Shown: positions 8,160-60,501, counted from the stretch's first letter. The stretch is 64,000 bases of DNA from an uncultured Methanosarcinales archaeon (GCA_964535955.1 CAZHVK010000001.1:115542-179541), one strand, 5' to 3'. Program-made: numbers and translations. The notes: generated from the letters alone by a model not told the origin.

Positions 8160-9882
8160 ACACTACAAAATTGTGTTCTTTGTTTTGATATATTGTAAAG
8201 AAACCTATACTGTTAAAGTCTGATTTTGTAATTGTATTAAGATATATAAACTTCTTTGTTTTATTATTGAATATGTTTTGGTTTATGATTATATAATTTA
8301 CATTATATTTTTTTATGATGTTATTGATTGTTTGTAAGTCGTTATCAGGCAGCATTACTGCTTTTCTAGAAGTATAAAAATTAACTTGAGCAGGAAGAGA
8401 TGTCATGATAATATCATCTTGATTTGTATTTTGTAATACCCAATCTGCTTCAGGAGAATAATTTTGGTATGATGGAAGAGTTGATAATCTATAATTCATA
8501 AATGTTATGAAATAAAGACTAAATACAATAATTATAATGATTGTGATTATTAGAATGATATATGAAGATTTGTTAATCAATGTTTTGATTGTGTTTACTA
8601 TTTTTGATTTTGATTTTTTGCAATATCTCAATAAGGTATAAATTATTAGAGGAGTAAGTAAAATCAGGATTGGAGTAAAATATCTTGGTTCATAATGAGA
8701 TCTTATTGTGAAAAAAATTGATAATAAGTAGAATGTGAGGATTGAAAAGTCAAGATATATTCTTATTCCTAATTTAAAGGTTTTTCTTAATCTTAACAAG
8801 ATTAATGATGATATGAATAAAAATAATGTTATAAGATTTGTAAAAAAAAGATAAATTTGGCGTAATGTGAATATAATTATATTATTCCATGAACAAGAAA
8901 GATTTGTATGAGGTAAATATCTGATTATATGTTCTTGTAAAGGAGTTCTAAATCCTGAACATTTATAGATTAAATCAGGAAGTCCTGAATAAGGGGATGA
9001 AACAAAAGTATTGAATAAAAGAGAGTTTCTTAGAAAAAAAGGAAGCAAGATAAGAAAACATGTTAGTAATGTTAATGTTAAAGATATTATGAATCTGTGT
9101 CTGTTTGTTGTTTTGTTTGTTCTTTTGTTTGTTGTTTTGTTTGTTGTTTTGTTTGTTGTTTTGTTTGTTGTTTTGTTTGTTGTTTTTATTCTAAACTTTG
9201 ATAAAGTAAATAAATACATAATAGAAAGACATAGCATTGCAAAGATTGCAAAGATACCTGCATATTTTTGTAAAAAAGTAAATGCCAATATAATTCCTAA
9301 TATGAATGGTATTGTTGTTTTGGATGATGTTGTGCCAATAGTTGTGACAAGTTTTACAAAAAAATAAACACTTAATAATAATAAAATGTAAAACAAAGGT
9401 TCTGTCATTGCGTATAGAAAGTAATAACTAAATAAAAAATAAGGATTAAAGATTATAATTAAGCTTGAGAAAAATGCAATTGTTTCACCAAAAATGTCTT
9501 TTGTAATGAAATAAAAGAGGATTGCAAATATGAGAAATAAAATAATATTAATAATTTTTGTAGAAAAAACACTTATTCCAAAGATTAAATAGCTTAATGA
9601 GATTAATATTGGGAAAAAGATAACTCTTACATCTTCTGGGTGAGTTATGGTGTCATAATCTTCATAGTAATATAAAATAAAGTCATTAGTAATGCCTTTT
9701 CCTGATAATATGTTTTTTGCTGTTGCTGAAAAAATTCCTGGATCGCTTCCAATGCCATTATTGTTTGAAATTATGTTTAAATAAATTGAGAATAAGATTA
9801 GGATAATCAGCAAATATGATAAAAATAATTTGGTATTCTTTTTGTGCTTTTTTCTTTTTTTGTTGTTTTTCAGAGATTTCAT
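8119..9882 (-). CDS. Polytopic membrane protein, putative GT-C-fold (ArnT/PMT-like) glycosyltransferase; carries a (KTTNK)n low-complexity loop
   Basis: More than 10 predicted TM helices in the N-terminal two thirds and a soluble C-terminal domain. A KTTNKTTNKTTNKTTNKTTNKRTNKTTN loop is present. Position within the agl cluster is suggestive, but the family assignment is tentative. Confidence 0.4.
   Translation of the reverse strand: MKSLKNNKKRKKHKKNTKLFLSYLLIILILFSIYLNIISNNNGIGSDPGIFSATAKNILSGKGITNDFILYYYEDYDTITHPEDVRVIFFPILISLSYLIFGISVFSTKIINIILFLIFAILFYFITKDIFGETIAFFSSLIIIFNPYFLFSYYFLYAMTEPLFYILLLLSVYFFVKLVTTIGTTSSKTTIPFILGIILAFTFLQKYAGIFAIFAMLCLSIMYLFTLSKFRIKTTNKTTNKTTNKTTNKTTNKRTNKTTNRHRFIISLTLTLLTCFLILLPFFLRNSLLFNTFVSSPYSGLPDLIYKCSGFRTPLQEHIIRYLPHTNLSCSWNNIIIFTLRQIYLFFTNLITLFLFISSLILLRLRKTFKLGIRIYLDFSILTFYLLSIFFTIRSHYEPRYFTPILILLTPLIIYTLLRYCKKSKSKIVNTIKTLINKSSYIILIITIIIIIVFSLYFITFMNYRLSTLPSYQNYSPEADWVLQNTNQDDIIMTSLPAQVNFYTSRKAVMLPDNDLQTINNIIKKYNVNYIIINQNIFNNKTKKFIYLNTITKSDFNSIGFFTIYQNKEHNFVVFTNQSHLSPTYQI
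9107..9190. repeat. 15-nt tandem repeat (about 5.5 copies of tttgtttgttgtttt) inside a CDS, encoding (KTTNK)n on the minus strand
   Basis: The repeat is directly visible in the sequence. Confidence 0.9.
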
Positions 9883-17305: not shown

Positions 17306-17378
17306 ATTCTTTCCACCTAATAAAGTATTTGTTAAGTGTTGGAAGTATGATTTCTTTATAAAGTTTACTTTTTACAGT

Positions 17379-17487
17379 ATGTGCATGGTTCGTTCGTACT
17401 TTCAATGTGATACTATCTGCAATAGAAAGTCCTGACAGTCTTACGAAATAGCAGGTACTCTCTAGTCTTAACAGACACCATGCACAT
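17379..17487. repeat. Intergenic inverted-repeat-closed structured element, copy A (putative ncRNA or MITE-like)
   Basis: An 11-bp perfect terminal inverted repeat, ATGTGCATGGT ... ACCATGCACAT. Internal conserved motifs TCGTTCGTACTTTCAATGTG and GTCTTAACAGAC. The element is flanked on both sides by the direct repeat ACTTTTTACA. Confidence 0.6.
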
Positions 17488-17492
17488 ACTTT

Positions 17493-23495: not shown

Positions 23496-25397
23496 TTAAA
23501 TAACTTTTATTCTTCTTATCTTAACTCTTTGATCAGTTCCTGTTGAGATAATTATCCTCATTTCATATGTTCCTGGCATTGTTTTTTCAGGTATTTTAAG
23601 GACAACTTCTTTTGTTAACATGTCGTCATCATCTATTTCAAATGGACCCATTTCTTCTACAAACCCTAATTTTGGTGCTATAATGTGAAGAACTGCTTGA
23701 TCAATGTCTTTTGCTCTTTCTTTTGCAAAATTAACTGAAACATCTACTTTGTCTCCAGGTTTGAAATAAACTTGATTATCATTAGTCTTTATTCTACCTA
23801 CAAATAAATCTCTTTTAGCTGAATCAACAGCAGTGATTGTTACTGTATCTGAAGAAGTTAATTCTCCATCTGAAACTGTTAATTTAAAGACATATTCTCC
23901 TGTTCTTTCTGGTGTAAAAGATGCACGAGCTTGGTCAACATTGTTCATAGTCACTGTTTCTGGACCATCTTCAAATGTCCATTCATAAGTTAACATTGGA
24001 TCAAAAGGATTTGGATCGTATGAACCTGTACCATCTAATTTAAACAATACATCAACTACAGCTTCTTTATCATTTCCTGCATCTGCTACAGGTCTTGTGT
24101 TAATTGCATCCTCACCTGTAACTACAACATTAAACTCAGCCACACCTGCTAAACCTTGGTCATCAAAAGCAACTATTTGCAAAAGATGTGTGCCTGCTTT
24201 TGTGTAATAATGAGATTTATCAAAGTTGTATGATGCTGAGTTAGGAGTAAATTCTTCTGATTCACCATCTCCATAATAAATTATAACTGCCTCAATTAAT
24301 GTATCATCTGTAACTTGACCATTAAATGAAACTTCTAAAGGAGCATCTCCTTCTAAAGGACCTGCTGTTGCAGTAACTTCTGGTCTTTGATTATCTGGAT
24401 CAATTGAAACTAGAAAGTTTGTTACATAAACAACTGCGCCTTCTTGATCAGGTGCATATTCAAATCTTTCTGTTTTACCATTATTAATAACTTCACATTC
24501 CCAATGTTTTACTGCTGCATTATAATTACAAGTAGTATCAAATTGATTATTATGTTCATTTTGTCCTGATAAAGTACATGTACTTTTTTCTATATCACAG
24601 ACATTTAAATTTCCATCTAAAAAGAAATAATCTTTGTCTTTGTGATAACCTTCTGCTGAATGTTCAACTGCATAAGCCCTATTAGCATTAACTACAAAGT
24701 TTGCATTAGGTGTTCCTGTCTTAACAATACCACCTAAATCAACTGTTACTGGTTTTATGAATGCTTCTGTATTATAATCTTTTGCAGATGTTTTAACAGT
24801 GAATTGTGTTATAGCAGGAACTGATGTTTGTGCATCATCTGTTGGTTCTTGTGTATCTTCTTCTGTTTGGTCATCTGTTTGTTCGTCTGTTTGTTCGTCT
24901 GTTTCTTCTCCTGTTAAAGGTACTAAGAAATTTGTTACATAAACAACTGCGCCTTGGTCAGGTGCATATTCAAATCTTTCTGTTTTATCATTATTAACAA
25001 CTTTGCATTCCCAATGTTTTACTGCTGCATTGTAATTGCAAGAAGTAACATAATTATGATTATGATCATCATTACCTGTTAATGAACAAGTTGCTTGTTG
25101 TATATCACAAGTATCAAGATCACTGTCTAAAAAGAAATAATCTTTGTCTGATTTATAATTATCTGCTGAGTGTGTGACTGCATAAGCTCTGTCAGCACTA
25201 ACAGCGAAATTTGCATTAGGATTTCCTACTGCTTTAATTCCACCTAAATCAATATCACACGGTTTAATGAATTGTTCTGTGTTATAGTCTTTTGCAGATG
25301 TTTTAACAGTAAAAGTTGAGTATGCTGCTAATGCACCTGAAGCAATGACTATTGAAATCACAAGAAACATAAAAATCATATATTTTAGTTTTGCCAT
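23496..25397 (-). CDS. Secreted protein with two tandem copies of a novel domain of about 140 aa, separated by an acidic T/E/D/Q linker, followed by two PKD-like domains
   Basis: Signal peptide present. An internal duplication runs FTVKTSAKDYNTE.FIKP...NYNAAVKHWEC.V.NN.KTERFEYAPDQ...VVYVTNFLV. PKD motifs include WTFEDG...GEYVFKLTVSDG. The start at 25397 has a GAGAGGT SD upstream. Confidence 0.55.
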   Translation of the reverse strand: MAKLKYMIFMFLVISIVIASGALAAYSTFTVKTSAKDYNTEQFIKPCDIDLGGIKAVGNPNANFAVSADRAYAVTHSADNYKSDKDYFFLDSDLDTCDIQQATCSLTGNDDHNHNYVTSCNYNAAVKHWECKVVNNDKTERFEYAPDQGAVVYVTNFLVPLTGEETDEQTDEQTDDQTEEDTQEPTDDAQTSVPAITQFTVKTSAKDYNTEAFIKPVTVDLGGIVKTGTPNANFVVNANRAYAVEHSAEGYHKDKDYFFLDGNLNVCDIEKSTCTLSGQNEHNNQFDTTCNYNAAVKHWECEVINNGKTERFEYAPDQEGAVVYVTNFLVSIDPDNQRPEVTATAGPLEGDAPLEVSFNGQVTDDTLIEAVIIYYGDGESEEFTPNSASYNFDKSHYYTKAGTHLLQIVAFDDQGLAGVAEFNVVVTGEDAINTRPVADAGNDKEAVVDVLFKLDGTGSYDPNPFDPMLTYEWTFEDGPETVTMNNVDQARASFTPERTGEYVFKLTVSDGELTSSDTVTITAVDSAKRDLFVGRIKTNDNQVYFKPGDKVDVSVNFAKERAKDIDQAVLHIIAPKLGFVEEMGPFEIDDDDMLTKEVVLKIPEKTMPGTYEMRIIISTGTDQRVKIRRIKVI

Positions 25398-25566
25398 TTT
25401 TATATTACCTCTCATAGTTTTTCATTATATTAATTTATGATTGTAAATTGTGTTGATTTTTGTTGTTTTATTTAAATTTTATGTTATTGCTTTTATTCTT
25501 TGTTGTTCTGTTGTTGCTATATTATAATAATACTATTATATTAAATAAATCAAAAAAATAAAAAAA

Positions 25567-31206: not shown

Positions 31207-31343
31207 AAGGAGGAAGACAAAAATGATGCCAGGAATGAATATAAACAAACTTTTACAAAGTTTGATCAAAGGTAGTGAGGCATTACGCTTTGCTTCAGCC
31301 ACACAAGGAGGAAGACAAAAATGATGCCAGGAATGAATATAAA
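31207..31343. repeat. Direct duplication of a 39-nt translation-initiation segment (AAGGAGGAAGACAAAAATGATGCCAGGAATGAATATAAA) at 31207-31245 and 31305-31343
   Basis: The two 39-nt copies are exactly identical and lie 98 nt apart. Confidence 0.9.
31223..31324 (+). CDS. Putative 33-codon upstream ORF (MMPGMNINKLLQSLIKGSEALRFASATQGGRQK). It shares its first 7 codons with NAC, and its TGA stop overlaps the NAC ATG (ATGA)
   Basis: Created by the duplicated SD-plus-start segment. It has the same strong SD (AAGGAGG) as the downstream gene. Confidence 0.3.
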   Translation: MMPGMNINKLLQSLIKGSEALRFASATQGGRQK

Positions 31344-41909: not shown

Positions 41910-42575
41910 ATGTCTTATACTAAAATAATATCTTCAGGAAGTATTGTGGTAGATGATTTGTTAGATGGTGGTCTTGATAAAGATAAGATTACTTGTGTGT
42001 ATGGGGAAGCTGCTGCTGGCAAGACAACATTGGCAATATTAGCTGCTGTTGAGTGTGCTGCTTTAGGAGGCAAAGTTTTGTTTATTGATTCTGAAAATGG
42101 GTTTAGTACTGAAAGATTTAAACAGCTAAGCTGTGATAATTTGGAACTATTAAAGAATGTGTTTGTTGTTAAGATTAAATCTTTTTATGATCAATTACAG
42201 AAATTAAAGTTATTGGGTGAAAGTTTTTCTAAGTTTAGTTTGATAATTGTTGATACTATTGGTAATTTTTATCGTAAAGAGGTTGTTAAGGATATATTTG
42301 CTAATAAACAATTGGTTCATCAGTTCAATATATTAAAACAGATCGCTGATGAAAAAATTCCAGTGTTAATCACTAACCAAATCTATACTGACCCCAAAGA
42401 TAAAAGTGTGCAAGTTGTTGGTGGTAAAATTGTTAAGAATAATGTTGATTGTTTGATTCAATTGGTTAAGTTGAGTTCTGGTAATCGTTGTTGTGTGTTA
42501 AGAAAGCATCATGTGATTAAAGAAAAAAAAGAAAAAGGATTTAAGATTGTTGAAAAGGGGTTTATTCCATTATAA
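41910..42575 (+). CDS. radB: RadB-type recombinase paralogue (RecA/RadA superfamily, KaiC-like core)
   Basis: Walker A is GEAAAGKTTLAI and Walker B is LIIVDTI. The 221-aa size is typical of archaeal RadB. Confidence 0.7.
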   Translation: MSYTKIISSGSIVVDDLLDGGLDKDKITCVYGEAAAGKTTLAILAAVECAALGGKVLFIDSENGFSTERFKQLSCDNLELLKNVFVVKIKSFYDQLQKLKLLGESFSKFSLIIVDTIGNFYRKEVVKDIFANKQLVHQFNILKQIADEKIPVLITNQIYTDPKDKSVQVVGGKIVKNNVDCLIQLVKLSSGNRCCVLRKHHVIKEKKEKGFKIVEKGFIPL

Positions 42576-43203: not shown

Positions 43204-43809
43204 TTACTCTTCAGTAAACTCTTCCAATCCTGGAAACTTGTCTCCTTCTTTAATCAAACCTTTTCTTGTCATGTATTCTTTTGCAATTATGTAAAATATT
43301 AATCCTAATGACTTTTTACCTTTGTTATTGCATGGAATGACTAAATCAACATTATTAGATTGGTTATTTGTGTCACATAATGCAATTATTGATATGCTCA
43401 TTCTAACTGCATCTTCGACAGCATTTCTGTCTGGCCAAGGATCTGTTGAGAATAAGATCTTTGGTTCTGTAAATCCATCTAATAAAGGGTTTGTTAAGAT
43501 TCCAGGAGGATACCTGCCTGGATAAGCTTTTGTGCCTATTAAATCTGCAAACTTGTTAATAGCTTTCCAACCATTCTCTCTTCTTGAAATAAGCATTATT
43601 TCATTTGGTTCAAATTGTGTTAGAAAATTTATGGCTAATCTAATTCTTTCATCTATTTTTTGAAGATTTAAAACTGATAAACCATCTGGTCTTGTTTTGT
43701 ATATGAATTTTTCCATATATTTTGTTTTGAATTTTGTTCCAATATGAATACCTGCTTTTAGGTATTGATCAGATGGTACTAAAAATTGTCTTTGTTGTTG
43801 AGCTGCCAT
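43204..43809 (-). CDS. rps2: 30S ribosomal protein S2 (uS2)
   Basis: The archaeal uS2 pattern runs throughout (QFLVPSDQYLKAGIHIGTKFKT..., GRYPPGILTN). Confidence 0.9.
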   Translation of the reverse strand: MAAQQQRQFLVPSDQYLKAGIHIGTKFKTKYMEKFIYKTRPDGLSVLNLQKIDERIRLAINFLTQFEPNEIMLISRRENGWKAINKFADLIGTKAYPGRYPPGILTNPLLDGFTEPKILFSTDPWPDRNAVEDAVRMSISIIALCDTNNQSNNVDLVIPCNNKGKKSLGLIFYIIAKEYMTRKGLIKEGDKFPGLEEFTEE

Positions 43810-43836
43810 GTTAATTTCACCTTTTATATTTTATTA

Positions 43837-44000
43837 CATGTGTATGGTTCGTTCAAACTTTCCATGTGTCATATCATTGCTTGGAAGGCCTTGTAGTTTT
43901 ACAATTTGTGTGGGTTTTCACTTGTCAGAAATGGGACATTTCTGATCATGCTCATGAATCTACGATTCATGACAGGCCTTAACAGGCACCATACACATGT
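43837..44000. repeat. Intergenic inverted-repeat-closed structured element, copy B
   Basis: A 13-bp perfect terminal inverted repeat, ACATGTGTATGGT ... ACCATACACATGT. Internal motifs are TCGTTCAAACTTTCCATGTG and GGCCTTAACAGGC. Three internal perfect hairpins are present. Both sides carry the flank TTTTATTAC. Confidence 0.6.
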
Positions 44001-44133
44001 TTTATTACAGTAGAATCATATTCATACTGTATTTATTATCAGCCAATACAGTGTTTGTCTTAAGTCCACGTATGTGCTTTACTTAAGATAGGCTAATGTA
44101 TGTTGGTAGAGGGGTTTGGTTTATAAATGTAAC

Positions 44134-45204
44134 TCAGAATTCACTCAACTTCTTTTCCTTCTCTTTAAAAGTGATTATCTTTGTTGAGCCACCATATCCT
44201 TGGAGTTTTTCAACCTTTATGAAATGACCTTTTTCTAGTTTATCAATGTGTCTTGTGAAGGATTTATAAGATAAGTTTCCACCTGTGTCTTCATAGATCT
44301 TGTATAGATTGCCTATCTTTGAATTAGGGTTTTCTTTTACAATGTTTAATATGAACTGAGTGTTGTCAACTAAATCTTTTTTATTTTTTACAGAAAATTC
44401 ATCTAATTTTCTTATTGCTTCTTTGACATGTTCTATGGTTATTGTTTTACTACTTTTGTCTTCTGCTGAATTACCAGATTCTCTCATTAGATATAAACCA
44501 GACCTTATGTCCTGCATTAACCATGTTTTTTCTGCAATCAAATTAAATGCACCATCATTCCAAACATTGCTTACAAATGCATATTTTAATCTGTTTTTTA
44601 ATATGCCTACTGTTTCTGATTCATTATATGATTTGAATTCAAGAAATTCACCTGTTAATCTTGATTTTAATCTTGAGTCTAAGTTGTTGAGATATGTCTT
44701 GTAATTGCTTATCAATATTAAACATGATCTGTAGATGTTTTCTAATATAAAGTATAAAAAGTCAAAATCATCTAATTTGTCTATCTCATCAAAACAAAAT
44801 ACTGTACCTACTTTGTTTAGCTTTTCTTTGATAATTTTAAAAAGTTCATGTGTTTTTTTATTTTGTATGAATTTGTAATCTAGTTGGTCGCAAATCTGGC
44901 AGATTATCTTATGTGATGAATTGTGTGTCCAACAATTTATGTAAATTGGTATGATTTCATCTGTTTCCTGTTCTAATTCTTTGAGAACATGTTTTGTTGC
45001 AACTGTTTTGCCAACACCTGGTAACCCATATAACATTAAGTTTCTTGCATTTCTTTTCTGAAATAATGGTTTTATTGAATTTGCTATCTTGTGCTGTTCT
45101 TTTTCTCTGTATGGTAAAAGTTTTGGAATATAGTCATAGTCAAGTGCAACTGTGTTTAAGAAAAGTGATTCATTGTCCTTTAACATGTTGTCGAATAAGC
45201 CCAT
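44134..45204 (-). CDS. orc1/cdc6: Orc1/Cdc6 replication initiator (AAA+ plus C-terminal winged helix)
   Basis: Walker A is LMLYGLPGVGKT, Walker B is FCFDEID, and a wH domain follows. Confidence 0.9.
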   Translation of the reverse strand: MGLFDNMLKDNESLFLNTVALDYDYIPKLLPYREKEQHKIANSIKPLFQKRNARNLMLYGLPGVGKTVATKHVLKELEQETDEIIPIYINCWTHNSSHKIICQICDQLDYKFIQNKKTHELFKIIKEKLNKVGTVFCFDEIDKLDDFDFLYFILENIYRSCLILISNYKTYLNNLDSRLKSRLTGEFLEFKSYNESETVGILKNRLKYAFVSNVWNDGAFNLIAEKTWLMQDIRSGLYLMRESGNSAEDKSSKTITIEHVKEAIRKLDEFSVKNKKDLVDNTQFILNIVKENPNSKIGNLYKIYEDTGGNLSYKSFTRHIDKLEKGHFIKVEKLQGYGGSTKIITFKEKEKKLSEF

Positions 45205-45255
45205 TTTATGTTTGGTAGAAGTTTATGGTTTATAATAATTTTGGTGATTTAGCAA

Positions 45256-45371
45256 TAATAAAACCCTTTCGTTCGCATGCTCAATGCAATTATTATGATA
45301 ATTTGAGCAACTGTTATATTCTTATGAATTGAACTCATGCTCACTGGCCTTAACAAGCAAGGGTTTTATTA
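45256..45371. repeat. Intergenic inverted-repeat-closed structured element, copy D
   Basis: A 13-bp perfect terminal inverted repeat, TAATAAAACCCTT ... AAGGGTTTTATTA. Internal motifs are TTCGTTCGCATGCTCAATG and GGCCTTAACAAGC. It lies directly upstream of the orc1/cdc6 start. Confidence 0.55.
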
Positions 45372-45374
45372 GAA

Positions 45375-45692
45375 TTATTGCACTCTTCTACCACAAAATG
45401 GACAGAAGTGATAGTTCATAGGCATGTGAACTTTGCAGTCATAGCAATATACTGTTTTTTTTCTTGCTAAATGTGCTTTGTGTGGTTTATGTGGTTTTTT
45501 GGATTTTTCTTTTTTGTGTCTTCTGGATTCTTTCATGCCTGTTATAAACCATTTTGCAATCCCATAAACAACAAAAATAATCCCTAAATAGAAAAATGCA
45601 GAATAATTAAATTGATCTGTTGTAATAAAGTGAGAAATAATTGTAACAATTGCTCCTATTATTATGAATGCAAGTGGGTGGATTGAGACCAT
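45375..45692 (-). CDS. Small membrane protein with a C-terminal zinc ribbon (CxxC...CxxC)
   Basis: Two TM helices followed by CYDCKVHMPMNYHFCPFCGRRV. Confidence 0.5.
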   Translation of the reverse strand: MVSIHPLAFIIIGAIVTIISHFITTDQFNYSAFFYLGIIFVVYGIAKWFITGMKESRRHKKEKSKKPHKPHKAHLARKKTVYCYDCKVHMPMNYHFCPFCGRRVQ

Positions 45693-45715
45693 ATATTTTT
45701 TCCTCTTTTTTTTAA

Positions 45716-45759
45716 ACGCACAGACTTCCGAAGAAGTCTATGCGCATCACCTTTTTTTT
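45716..45759. promoter_or_regulatory. GC-rich imperfect hairpin (12-bp stem, CGAA loop) followed by a 9-T run, about 25 nt upstream of the Zn-ribbon gene start
   Basis: ACGCACAGACTTC-CGAA-GAAGTCTATGCGC followed by TTTTTTTTT. This is hairpin-plus-T-run terminator-like geometry on the plus strand. Confidence 0.4.
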
Positions 45760-45800
45760 TAAAAAATTACCTCGAGGTAAGTGTGAATTAATAATCTTTT

Positions 45801-45913
45801 ATGAAACTCCTTCGCTCAAACTTTCCATGTGTTGTATTCTTTGCTTGGAAAGTCCTGATCTTTTGACAATAAGATTGGTTTTCGCTGGCCAGTAATACTG
45901 GCAGGAGTTTCAT
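45801..45913. repeat. Intergenic inverted-repeat-closed structured element, copy C
   Basis: A 10-bp perfect terminal inverted repeat, ATGAAACTCC ... GGAGTTTCAT. The internal motif is TTCGCTCAAACTTTCCATGTG. An internal hairpin is GCCAG-TAATA-CTGGC. Confidence 0.55.
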
Positions 45914-45923
45914 TACTATTTTG

Positions 45924-47207
45924 TTATTTTTTCTTAATAACTTTTTTTCCATTCATATAATTCCACAAAGCTTTTGGAATCTTTATTGAGCCATCTTTTT
46001 GCTGATTGTTTTCAAGTATTGAGACTAAAGCCCTGGATGTTGCAATCACTGTATTGTTCAGTGTGTGTGCATAATATTTATTGTCTTTGTCTTGGATCTT
46101 TATGTTTAATCTTCGTGCTTGTGATTCTTCCATGTTTGTTAATGAACCTGCTTCTATGTATTTCTCTTGTCTTGGTGACCAAACTTCTAAATCGCATGAT
46201 TTTGCTTTTAAATCTGCTAAATCACCTGAACACATTTCTAATATTCTGAATGGAATTTTGAATTCTTTGTAAAGGTCTATAACAAAGTTAAGCATTTTAT
46301 CATACCATTTATAAGAATCTTCTGGTTCGCAAATAACAATCATCTCCTGCTTATTGAATTGGTGTGTTCTAAATATTCCTTTTTCATCAATACCATGTGA
46401 TCCTATCTCTTTTCTAAAACACATAGAATAAGCTGTTTGTTTTACTGGAAGATCTTTTTTATCTAAAGTTTTGTTAATGAATTGTCCTATAAGCGGATGT
46501 TCTGATGTTGCTATCATGAACAAGTCTTCACCTTCAATCTTATAAGACATTTGTTCTATCTCTGCATGAGAATATACACCTGTTAAAATGCATTCTCTTA
46601 TCATTAATGGAGGCTCCACATATAAAAAATCATGTTTAAGCATAAAGTCTCTTGCAAAATTAACTAATGCCATGTTTAATAATGCAATATCACCTTTCAT
46701 ATAATAGAAACCTTTGCCAGATGTTTCTGCTGATGTGTCAAAGTCAAGCATGCCTAATTGTTCTCCTAATTCTACATGGCTCTTTACTTGGAATGAAAAT
46801 TTCTTTGGCTCCAGAAACCTTTGAATTTCTACATTCTGAGAATCATCTTTGCCAATTGGAACACTTTTATGTATTATGTTTGGTATTTTATACATAAATT
46901 CTTTGATTTGTGTCCTTAGTTCTTTTTCTTTGAATTCTATTTTTTCTATTTCTATTGGAATTTGTTTTGCTTTTTTTTTTAATTTTTGAAATTCTGATTC
47001 TTTTTTGTCTTTTTTTGCTTTATTGATAAGTTCTGAGACTTTATTTCTCTCATGCCTTAATTTGTCTAATTTTTGTTTTAAAGAACGCCATTCTTTGTCT
47101 AATTTTTGTACTTTGTCAACAAAAGGAAGTCTATCATCTTGAAACTTTTTCTTAATATTGTCTTTAACTGTTTTAGGAGTATTTCTTATAAGATTGATAT
47201 CAATCAT
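45924..47207 (-). CDS. serS: Seryl-tRNA synthetase (class II)
   Basis: N-terminal coiled-coil arm and class II motifs (FRKEIGSHGIDEKGIFRTHQFNKQE; GSLTNMEESQARRL). Confidence 0.9.
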   Translation of the reverse strand: MIDINLIRNTPKTVKDNIKKKFQDDRLPFVDKVQKLDKEWRSLKQKLDKLRHERNKVSELINKAKKDKKESEFQKLKKKAKQIPIEIEKIEFKEKELRTQIKEFMYKIPNIIHKSVPIGKDDSQNVEIQRFLEPKKFSFQVKSHVELGEQLGMLDFDTSAETSGKGFYYMKGDIALLNMALVNFARDFMLKHDFLYVEPPLMIRECILTGVYSHAEIEQMSYKIEGEDLFMIATSEHPLIGQFINKTLDKKDLPVKQTAYSMCFRKEIGSHGIDEKGIFRTHQFNKQEMIVICEPEDSYKWYDKMLNFVIDLYKEFKIPFRILEMCSGDLADLKAKSCDLEVWSPRQEKYIEAGSLTNMEESQARRLNIKIQDKDNKYYAHTLNNTVIATSRALVSILENNQQKDGSIKIPKALWNYMNGKKVIKKK

Positions 47208-57966: not shown

Positions 57967-57983
57967 TTTTATCACTCTCCTAG

Positions 57984-58036
57984 TTTGTCAAAAACTTTGT
58001 TTTTGATCATGATCAGAAATCCTTGATTTCTGACAA
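57984..58036. promoter_or_regulatory. Conserved palindromic upstream element, copy 2: TTTGTCAAAAAC-N8-TTTTTGATCATGATCAGAAA ... TGACAAA, about 44 nt upstream of dnaG
   Basis: The same 12-bp palindrome TGATCATGATCA with 32/34 conserved flanks. The outer arms TTTGTCA/TGACAAA are also symmetric. Confidence 0.5.
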
Positions 58037-58592
58037 ATTTGATAGAAAAAGCTCTCTAACTTGATTCCAAATAATGTGTTTTGTGAATAAGTAAACATGA
58101 TTTTGCCTTTTCTATCTATTTAAGAACAAGTTTTAAACCGTAATTTTAACTAATTTCCAACTCTTTTTTTGCTTTTAAATGATTAAATGAATATGATTTG
58201 CGGTTTTTTTGACTTGTTCTATTGTTTTTAAGCCTATTTTGACTTTCTTTGTTCTTTTTAAACTTAATTTATGATTTAATAAGCATAAAAGGTTTGTTGC
58301 CTGAAGCACTAACTCCCAGGGTTCATTGCTCGCCTTATGCGTTAGCTCCATTGAGCACTCTCGTGTCAGGCTGTATTATGCAAGAGTATCTTTAAATCAC
58401 TGTTGTTCTTTGTTGAACAGCTCATAAAAGGACCCATTTGCATAAATTGTGCGATGATATATGGTAGGTAGAGGTGGTTAATAAATGTTTGGTTTTTTGT
58501 GGTTTTTGTCATCACTTGAAGGTAATGACTTATAGAAAGATTTATATAGTGGTGTGTGTTGCTTTTTACTATATAATTATATAGTGAGGTAA

Positions 58593-59772: not shown

Positions 59773-60501
59773 ATGATCCCACTCTTCCTTAAAAAACACA
59801 AAATCTCTAAGTTCTTTAGTGAATTGTTTAACACAAAAAGAAGTAAAAAAGTAAAAAAAACATTAGACAGATTCATCCAACAAATATATTGGGGAGATGA
59901 TTTAACAGTTGAACAGTCTAGAAAGAATCTTGGCAAAGGGTTGGTAGAGATTGTTAAATATGGACAGCATTCTTCAAATGGAATATTGATTACTGGTGAT
60001 GGGTATTTCTTGACTGCTGAACATTGTGTTACAGATGGATTAGTAGGTGCACAGATAAGATTGTTTAATGGTAATCTGTATCCTGTTGAAAAGATTTGTG
60101 GATATGTTCCTAAAGAAGATATTGCTCTTGCAAAAGCAGATATTCCATATAAATGTATTCCAATGGAATACAGAATCTATAATACTAATAAATTAGGAAA
60201 AATGGCTGTTGCTACAATGACCAGAAGATATGGTAAACTGATTGTAAAGTATGGTTTTGTTACAAGAGAATGGAACCCTACTCCTACATACAAAGGTGGT
60301 CTTGAAGCTGTTATGTATCCTAACCAGTTTACAATGGATATTGAAGCTATACCTGGTGATTCAGGAGGGATAATTGTTAGTGAAGATGGAAGATTGGTTG
60401 GTATTTTAAGTGGTGGCCATGAGAAAATATTAACTGGTGCTGGTGTAAAGATAATAAGTGCTTTGGAATTAGTTGATAGGTATAAGAGGAAGTTGAGATG
60501 A
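59773..60501 (+). CDS. Trypsin-like (S1/chymotrypsin fold) serine protease, apparently cytoplasmic
   Basis: Catalytic triad: His in LTAEHCV, Asp in DIALAKAD, Ser in GDSGGII. No signal peptide. I used the ATG at 59773; the track used a TTG at 59740. Confidence 0.65.
   Translation: MIPLFLKKHKISKFFSELFNTKRSKKVKKTLDRFIQQIYWGDDLTVEQSRKNLGKGLVEIVKYGQHSSNGILITGDGYFLTAEHCVTDGLVGAQIRLFNGNLYPVEKICGYVPKEDIALAKADIPYKCIPMEYRIYNTNKLGKMAVATMTRRYGKLIVKYGFVTREWNPTPTYKGGLEAVMYPNQFTMDIEAIPGDSGGIIVSEDGRLVGILSGGHEKILTGAGVKIISALELVDRYKRKLR

Follow-up and report, generated by a model that had tools for sequence, protein, structure and literature searches.

Three short spacers around the orc1/cdc6 gene, in a 64,000-nt stretch of marine Woesearchaeota (DPANN) DNA (CAZHVK010000001.1:115542-179541, here called the window, with positions counted from its first nucleotide), each hold one copy of a palindromic element of about 110 bp, and a fourth copy is found elsewhere in the window. 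[quoted passage not shown] A first-pass annotation of this DNA had put forward the region 43800-45950 as a candidate replication origin and had suggested that the elements are, or were captured as, Orc1-binding origin recognition boxes (ORBs), with a preference for certain insertion sites as the alternative.

The family covariance model (R1) was run on the window, also with its speed filters switched off. Exactly four copies were obtained, all of them on the plus strand, with E-values of 1e-12 to 1e-20, the next best match having E > 1. These results agree with the first-pass annotation in the positions given for copies B, D and C, in the bracketing of orc1/cdc6 by these three copies and in the direct orientation of all four. 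The copies, together with a unit nested in one of them, are as follows:

17376-17490, plus strand: copy A, 102 bits; 14-bp arms; flanking direct repeat TTTTAC; 26 kb from the cluster
43836-44000, plus strand: copy B, 66 bits; 13-bp arms at 43836-43848 and 43988-44000; direct repeat TTTATT
43925-43973, plus strand: nested 49-nt two-hairpin unit inside copy B, of a second small repeat family
45256-45371, plus strand: copy D, 100 bits; 13-bp arms; P2 hairpin TGCTCAA/TTGAGCA, with no ORB-like GGAAAG
45801-45913, plus strand: copy C, 92 bits; 11-bp arms; begins 10 nt past the stop codon of the seryl-tRNA synthetase (SerRS) gene

Copies B, D and C fill all three of the short spacers around cdc6. Copy B is located 135 nt past the cdc6 stop codon in the 5' leader of the ribosomal protein S2 gene (rpS2), with the conserved leader structure on one side of it and the Shine-Dalgarno sequence on the other, and its length of 165 nt includes the nested insert, which also reduces its score. 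A gap of 53 nt, with the putative cdc6 TATA box in it, separates copy D from the cdc6 ATG downstream. Copy D begins 5 nt beyond the stop codon of a 105-aa open reading frame (ORF), and copy C is found approximately 430 bp further upstream, past this ORF. Under random placement over 34 spacers, the probability of at least three of four copies falling in the three cdc6 spacers is ~0.001-0.003, and the probability under random placement of any three copies lying within 2.2 kb is ~0.03-0.05. The nested unit of copy B, which consists of TCAGAAAT..ATTTCTGA followed by TCATGA..TCATGA and forms two hairpins, splits an otherwise invariant segment of the element between CACTKG and GCC. It is present at the same position in the copy B of a relative, L032 (~1515-1565; loci of relatives are cited by L numbers), and related units of this second family also stand alone, in the window at 58005-58034 and in L003 at ~9440-9500.

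The length of the element is tightly held at 106-116 nt, copy B with its insert excepted. Its ends pair in a terminal stem, P1, which is perfect over 10-14 bp in nearly every copy and whose sequence is locus-specific (arms AGTATGTGCATGGT in A, ACATGTGTATGGT in B, ATGAAACTCCT in C and TAATAAAACCCTT in D), the shared part being the outermost (AGT)ATG...CAT(ACT) alone. Inside P1 there follow, in order, a TCGTTC strand, the 3-bp helix P1b (GCA/TGC, GTA/TAC, AAA/TTT or ACC/GGT), the hairpin P2 (CTTTCAA/TTGAAAG, CTTTCCA/TGGAAAG or TGCTCAA/TTGAGCA), the variable hairpin region P3, a TCACTGG strand and the small hairpin P4 (GCCT/AGGC, GTCT/AGAC or GCCA/TGGC). Both the TCGTTC and TCACTGG strands are unpaired and invariant, and together the parts form a three-way junction. 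Over 20 copies, standard pairing was found in 95.7% of cells and both-sided changes in 20 of the 25 pairs, values which were reached by none of 500 shuffles, and sliding the partner columns by 1-3 positions caused pairing to drop to 30-45%.

The nature of these pairs indicates the level at which the fold is kept. Watson-Crick pairs account for 413 of the 425 counted in the 17 best copies, G-T and A-C pairs for only two each, and both strands fold equally well as DNA (z = -4.1 to -5.2). An RNA made from one strand in so AT-rich a genome (the window has a GC content of 28%) would be expected to use G-U pairs freely. In addition, no Rfam match was found for the elements, either at the gathering threshold or with E relaxed to 10, inspection of the flanks gave no promoter or TATA box at a fixed distance upstream of the copies, and reading frames are inconsistent across the 20 copies, all of which are intergenic. 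On these grounds the pairing of the element is kept or generated at the DNA level, or alike on both strands.

The same observations tell against the elements being functional structured RNAs, that is, small RNA genes or co-transcribed cis-acting modules of untranslated regions, such as stabilising stem-loops or terminators. Such a role would accord with the strong covariation, the tightly kept length and the invariant junction strands, with the position of copy B within the S2 leader transcript and with the finding that 11 of 19 copies begin 5-20 nt past a stop codon. Given the near absence of G-U pairs, the equal folding of both strands and the missing promoter and Rfam matches, and as orientation relative to genes is not fixed and presence or absence differs among close relatives at the same sites, we regard an RNA function as unlikely.

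A number of narrower candidates were also rejected. Many copies begin with ATG, as a small peptide gene might, and yet the frames run from 1 to 80 codons, some are startless and there is no ribosome-binding site. On the minus strand the order of hairpin, CCAGTGA, helix, GAACGA and closing stem recalls a type III hammerhead ribozyme; this was dismissed because the invariant CUGAUGA and GAAA core is missing and no Rfam ribozyme family matches. An RNase P-like GGAAAGTCC in copies A and C is merely the 3' arm of P2, and ARAGORN found no tRNA-like genes in the window.

Gain and loss in related genomes

A degenerate family pattern was scanned over 185,579 species genomes and a metagenome collection. 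Real copies were found to be confined to three metagenome-assembled genomes of one clade, to Tara Oceans contigs of the same organisms and to one further contig. Altogether 20 copies were found, all in a single clade of marine Woesearchaeota. Pattern matches in bacteria were set aside as chance, having no covariance-model score, and the family is absent from viral contigs, in which one 20-mer match was taken as chance, the matched stretch being 59% GC. None of the ten loci that were found by the genome scan, independently of cdc6, holds cdc6. The neighbours of the element in relatives include genes for Hsp70, aIF5B, a dCTP deaminase-like protein, prefoldin, PolX and a thymidylate-kinase-domain protein, among others.

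At the cdc6 locus of relatives, occupancy of the three sites is variable. Sites C and D are empty in the closest relatives, L001/L002 (Cdc6 87% identical) and L003 (79%), where the spacer between the small ORF and cdc6 is 44-78 nt (44 nt in L001) and where site D of L003 retains one arm only; site B is empty in L001, L003 and L004. Elements occur at both sites C and D in L004, the one at site D being of the same type as copy D of the window, and site C in L004 and L031 holds a different core type from that of copy C of the window. L032 has a copy B at the corresponding point of the S2 leader, with arms that are almost the same, and in this copy the core is inverted with respect to the genes. 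In L004, L031 and L032, too, copies lie within 1.5 kb of cdc6.

Further features of the copies are those of inserted DNA. Direct repeats of 6-9 nt flank 4 of the 20 copies (A, B, L008 and L009) and none of the others, against 3.2% in mismatched-flank controls. Identity in the core is uncorrelated with identity in P1 (r = -0.05): L009 and L016 have cores that are 90% identical and arms that are unrelated, and the orthologues L031 and L004a have identical arms and cores that are 78% identical. Orientation relative to neighbouring genes is mixed, the site of copy B having been seen in both orientations. An empty site for copy A could not be used, since the reductase gene beside it has homologues of no more than 59% identity. 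From the empty sites, the inversion, the direct repeats, the unrelated neighbours and the uncoupled arms it follows that the element behaves as dispersed DNA that is gained and lost, and not as a conserved site for the binding of an initiator or other protein.

Just upstream of a complete element in L011 (4801-4880, minus strand), a solo arm ATGTGTATGGT and a truncated start ATGTTTATGGG-TCGCTCGTGCTTTCTATG were observed, which suggests nested or aborted insertions.

Strand asymmetry and the origin question

Origins of archaea commonly adjoin orc1/cdc6 (PMC5333045), and recognisable ORBs are lacking in some archaea (PMC3089459). The cdc6 spacers might on this basis be a non-canonical origin, with the hairpin elements acting as Orc1/Cdc6-binding or cruciform origin repeats, and the clustering of three of the four copies at cdc6, the copies close to cdc6 in three relatives and the match of copies B and C, within two mismatches, to the 10-mer of the first-pass annotation are consistent with such a role. 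Strand asymmetry provides the principal evidence against it. GC skew at third codon positions (GC3 skew) was split into a coding-strand part and a strand part, so that the latter is corrected for gene orientation. For the window the coding-strand part (c) is 0.21 and the strand part (r) is +0.33 for the plus strand, the G-rich one, approximately 60% of the genes being on the C-rich strand. The strand part is 0.31 +/- 0.03 to the left of cdc6 (35 genes) and 0.35 +/- 0.04 to the right (16 genes), with p = 0.46 for the difference and p < 1e-7 for each side against zero. Four-fold degenerate sites give corresponding values of 0.36 and 0.34, and intergenic DNA has a strand skew of +0.24 over the whole window.

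No change of sign in strand asymmetry occurs anywhere in the 64 kb, nor is there one at cdc6 in L001, L003 or L072. Asymmetry of this kind usually reflects replication, and if this holds here, its constancy places the whole window on one replichore. The first-pass annotation had itself named a skew minimum located elsewhere as refuting its candidate origin at 43800-45950, and over the 64 kb covered the skew agrees with this, its sign being the same on both sides of the gene. The available space is also limited, as the spacers adjacent to cdc6 in relatives are only 3-170 nt, too short for a layout of ORB, unwinding element and ORB.

The sequence GTTCAAACTTTCCATGTG, which had been proposed as the conserved, loosely ORB-like core of the elements, is exact in copy B alone, has one mismatch in C and three in A and is absent from D within three mismatches (3 matches in the window against 0.13 expected by chance). 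It is thus common to B and C and is not the core of the family. It comprises TCGTTC and the 5' arm of P2, and represents the B/C variant of a covarying hairpin arm that is replaced, with compensatory change, by TGCTCAA/TTGAGCA in copy D and five other copies. At the ORB-like position of P2, TTTCAA replaces TTCC in 10 of the 20 aligned copies and TGCTCAA does so in six.

A formal comparison with ORBs gave a similarity no better than that of random windows. No element is within two mismatches of TTCCAGTGGAAA (an example of the TTCC...GGAA dyad of the ORB core), for which the window has 7 matches against 8.4 expected, and the elements are 4-6 mismatches from the Pyrococcus 13-mer, where random 115-nt windows average 5.3. 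Copies B and C alone come within two mismatches of the 10-mer of the first-pass annotation, as do 5% of random windows, and copy D is at four. The mini-ORB of Pyrococcus needs conserved TTCC and GAA motifs (PMC1904270), and these are not kept in most copies.

The elements are similar to archaeal ORBs and mini-ORBs (PMC1904270, PMC5333045) in being repeated and close to orc1/cdc6 and in the TTCCA / TGGAAAG of copies B and C. They differ from them in having no contiguous TTCC...GGAA dyad and no ORB motif conserved in the family, in the direct orientation of all copies with genes and promoters, and no AT-rich unwinding element, in the space between them, and in not being conserved at the cdc6 locus, where there is no skew switch. 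Considering also the empty C and D sites and the inverted core in L032, we judge it highly improbable that the elements serve as origin repeats. The other suggestion of the first-pass annotation, insertion, was essentially correct in that a repeat family has been inserted; nothing was found to mark the place of the cluster as an origin. On this interpretation a tempting but wrong origin call is removed. The orc1/cdc6 gene would be within a single replichore with no room for an adjoining canonical origin, and annotation of origins by adjacency to cdc6 would mislead in this clade of Woesearchaeota.

Other potential ORBs near cdc6 were also considered. The conserved block between cdc6 and S2, with its TTACAGTAGAAT dyad, was rejected, having proved to be the folded leader RNA of S2, from which it is not parted in L004. 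More distant Woesearchaeota, in which a lineage-specific consensus was sought, have cdc6 spacers of 3-76 nt with no ORB or other repeat arrays nearby. The closest ORB-like dyad of the window is a perfect palindrome, TTCCATTGGAAT, at 60157-60169, which is isolated and ~15 kb from cdc6.

Orientation, spread and relation to known repeats

The model strand of the element, which bears TCGTTC, is on the locally G-rich strand in 19 of the 20 copies, and at loci with |r| >= 0.13 the count is 11 against 1 (binomial p ~0.006). The inverted copy of L032 is informative here. In that relative (226-2218) the GC3 skew is +0.56 for cdc6 and +0.81 for S2, as opposed to -0.31 and -0.15 in the window (43204-45204), and this reversal of sign suggests that the cdc6-S2 block of L032 has changed to the other replication strand. 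The core of the L032 element has been turned round with respect to the genes as well, and so remains on the G-rich strand. The shared direction of the four copies of the window can be attributed to this dependence of orientation on strand asymmetry, and a link between element orientation and the direction of replication is suggested.

Transposition in the IS200/IS605 family proceeds via single-stranded DNA, with orientation tied to the replication fork (PMC5027513), and because of this a mechanism involving a single-strand hairpin is the best analogy that we can offer. By such a mechanism the element would fold as a single-stranded DNA hairpin, and its spread, inversion or retention would be linked to the replication fork, as with REPs or IS200/IS605-derived repeats. 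The cluster at cdc6 probably arose through re-insertion nearby, or gene conversion, at some of the small number of spacers where insertions are tolerated. Copies B and C alone share the P1b/P2 sequence AAA-CTTTCCATGTGT, a 22-nt match of 95% identity with an AAA/TTT P1b and an identical P2 arm, and this pattern points to probable local copying or gene conversion between these neighbours. The analogy to IS200/IS605 is incomplete, given the lack of a fixed tetranucleotide, the direct repeats at some copies and the lack of an identified transposase.

With REP/BIME-RAYT systems and IS200/IS605-derived repeats (PMC3333891, PMC5027513) the element has in common its single-stranded DNA hairpins, replication-biased orientation, intergenic location and multiple copies; it differs in being much larger and branched, in the pairing of its ends with one another, and in having direct repeats at some copies, no conserved tetranucleotide at the insertion point and no Y1/HUH transposase identified among loci of up to 21 kb. 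Like prokaryotic MITEs (QMITE2 of Coxiella, Correia, ERIC and RUP; reviewed in PMC10969869) it is small, non-coding, multi-copy, intergenic and AT-rich, with inverted termini, a stable stem-loop fold, direct repeats at some copies, nested insertions and a presence that differs between close relatives. It departs from them in that its arms are locus-specific and vary independently of the core, that what is conserved is a three-way junction inside the element, whose two single strands are invariant, within a length of 106-116 nt, and that no parent insertion sequence was seen in the fetched loci. The unusual traits of this undescribed archaeal family are its branched fold, preserved almost wholly by Watson-Crick compensation, its locus-specific arms and an orientation that tracks strand asymmetry. 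To our knowledge, and after a search, repeats of the REP/IS200/IS605 type are not known from DPANN archaea.

The attC sites of integrons also require consideration, as the cdc6 region, with a gene followed by a palindrome three times over in one orientation and with palindromes just after stop codons, might be read as a cassette array. The element shares with attC a conserved hairpin with paired ends and imperfect sequence, its sequence varying with the structure kept, and a sensitivity to the replication strand of the sort reported for attC arrays (PMC5371416), and several arms read RAAAC...GTTTY. However, the R''/R' core sites are missing, most arms being without RYYYAAC/GTTRRRY, and the terminal stem pairs perfectly, without extrahelical bases. 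The flanked genes are moreover syntenic core housekeeping genes that are present without elements in relatives, and the genes called in the loci that were fetched around cdc6 include no integrase. It is exceedingly improbable that these elements are attC-like sites.

There are a number of points that weigh against an inserted repeat of the MITE or REP kind. No transposase or autonomous parent element was found in the fetched loci, which extend to at most 21 kb in relatives. The terminal arms differ among copies, which is not the case for the terminal inverted repeats of classical MITEs, direct repeats accompany a subset of copies only, and there is no fixed target tetranucleotide before the insertions, the left flanks ending variously, as opposed to IS200/IS605. 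A host function could instead lie behind the strictly conserved length (106-116 nt) and shape. Across the clade no fewer than three separate sites are occupied in the 2-kb neighbourhood of cdc6, an enrichment that exceeds the expectation for roughly ten evenly spread copies per genome and that is only partly explained. Some 12 informative loci underlie the orientation bias, which gene orientation partly confounds, and a replication source for the asymmetry is an assumption.

With the enrichment at cdc6 explained only in part, it is also conceivable, but very unlikely, that in DPANN archaea the element acts as a new sort of DNA signal, structured and polar with respect to replication, in the form of a hairpin with a three-way junction on one template strand at the fork. 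Selection would then keep its orientation with respect to fork direction, with a flip upon strand change as in L032, and its accumulation beside orc1/cdc6 would represent a role in replication control or fork handling.

A separate suggestion, that the terminal arms derive from a pre-existing target palindrome or an inverted duplication, was also considered. A short imperfect palindrome at site B of L001, the single arm at site D of L003 and the locus-specific arms are in its favour, and the recurrence of an ATGTGYATGG arm at unrelated loci is against it.

For the inserted repeat that we favour, a replication link that holds in complete genomes would make this a rare archaeal case of fork-coupled repeat DNA, and the family, if this reading is true, would serve as a marker of replichore orientation for fragmentary DPANN assemblies.

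The orc1/cdc6 gene block and other features of the window

The genes and signals around the cluster are listed below:

41910-42575, plus strand: RadB gene
43204-43809, minus strand: rpS2
44000-44128, minus strand: rpS2 promoter and structured 5' leader, with a TATA box at 44120-44128
44134-45204, minus strand: orc1/cdc6, 356 aa, named from Pfam Cdc6_lid and AAA_22, NCBIfam TIGR02928 and JGI homologue names
45227-45238, minus strand: putative cdc6 TATA box, ~28 nt upstream of the ATG, between copy D and cdc6
45375-45692, minus strand: 105-aa ORF, probably a membrane protein
45716-45745, minus strand: GC-rich hairpin GCGCATAGACTTC-TTCG-GAAGTCTGTGCGT, just upstream of the 105-aa ORF and outside the repeat family
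45924-47207, minus strand: SerRS

The region is a compact minus-strand housekeeping block comprising SerRS, the small membrane ORF, orc1/cdc6, the rpS2 leader and rpS2. The orc1/cdc6 product has a full-length match to TIGR02928 (E = 4e-53, 180.7 bits, the cut-off being 181.3), and JGI gives its homologues the name archaeal cell division control protein 6. The Cdc6 protein of the window and the local gene order are identical to those of the ENA scaffold SUTE22-1_SAMN10231904 scaffold_4494, and homologues of the protein carry the labels Woesearchaeota or Nanoarchaeota. In the relatives fetched via the Cdc6 protein the order SerRS, small ORF, cdc6, S2 is kept, with the exception of L004, in which a block of ABC-transporter genes is found between cdc6 and S2.

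In L001, L003 and L004 the box at 45227-45238 is kept in the form GTTTATAWT, and its role in the promoter is putative. L001 and L003 also keep the hairpin at 45716-45745, the stem of which shows compensatory changes. The sole conserved non-coding block adjoining cdc6 is 44000-44128, the rpS2 leader, which is also found in L001, L003, L004 and L032 with covarying pairs and with G-U pairs on the S2 sense strand, and which in L004 remains with S2, 4.4 kb from cdc6. The leader is ~100 nt long and conserved in five genomes, and its structure comprises a long-range helix and two hairpins, one internal and covarying, the other TACAGTATGAAT...ATTCTACTGTA. No Rfam family matches this leader, which may be an autoregulatory ribosomal-protein leader.

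Three other features were observed outside of this block. In a small gene, apparently that for NAC (nascent polypeptide-associated complex), the ribosome-binding site and the first codons are present twice owing to a perfect 39-nt direct repeat (31207-31245 and 31305-31343). The longest non-coding stretch of the window, 57976-58592 (618 nt), includes a GC-richer, structured-looking block at 58290-58420 and gave no Rfam match at E up to 1. Finally, a 275-nt segment occurs twice, at 24443-24717 and 24953-25227 (510 nt apart, 79% identity), inside the ORF 23496-25415, and probably encodes an internal protein repeat.

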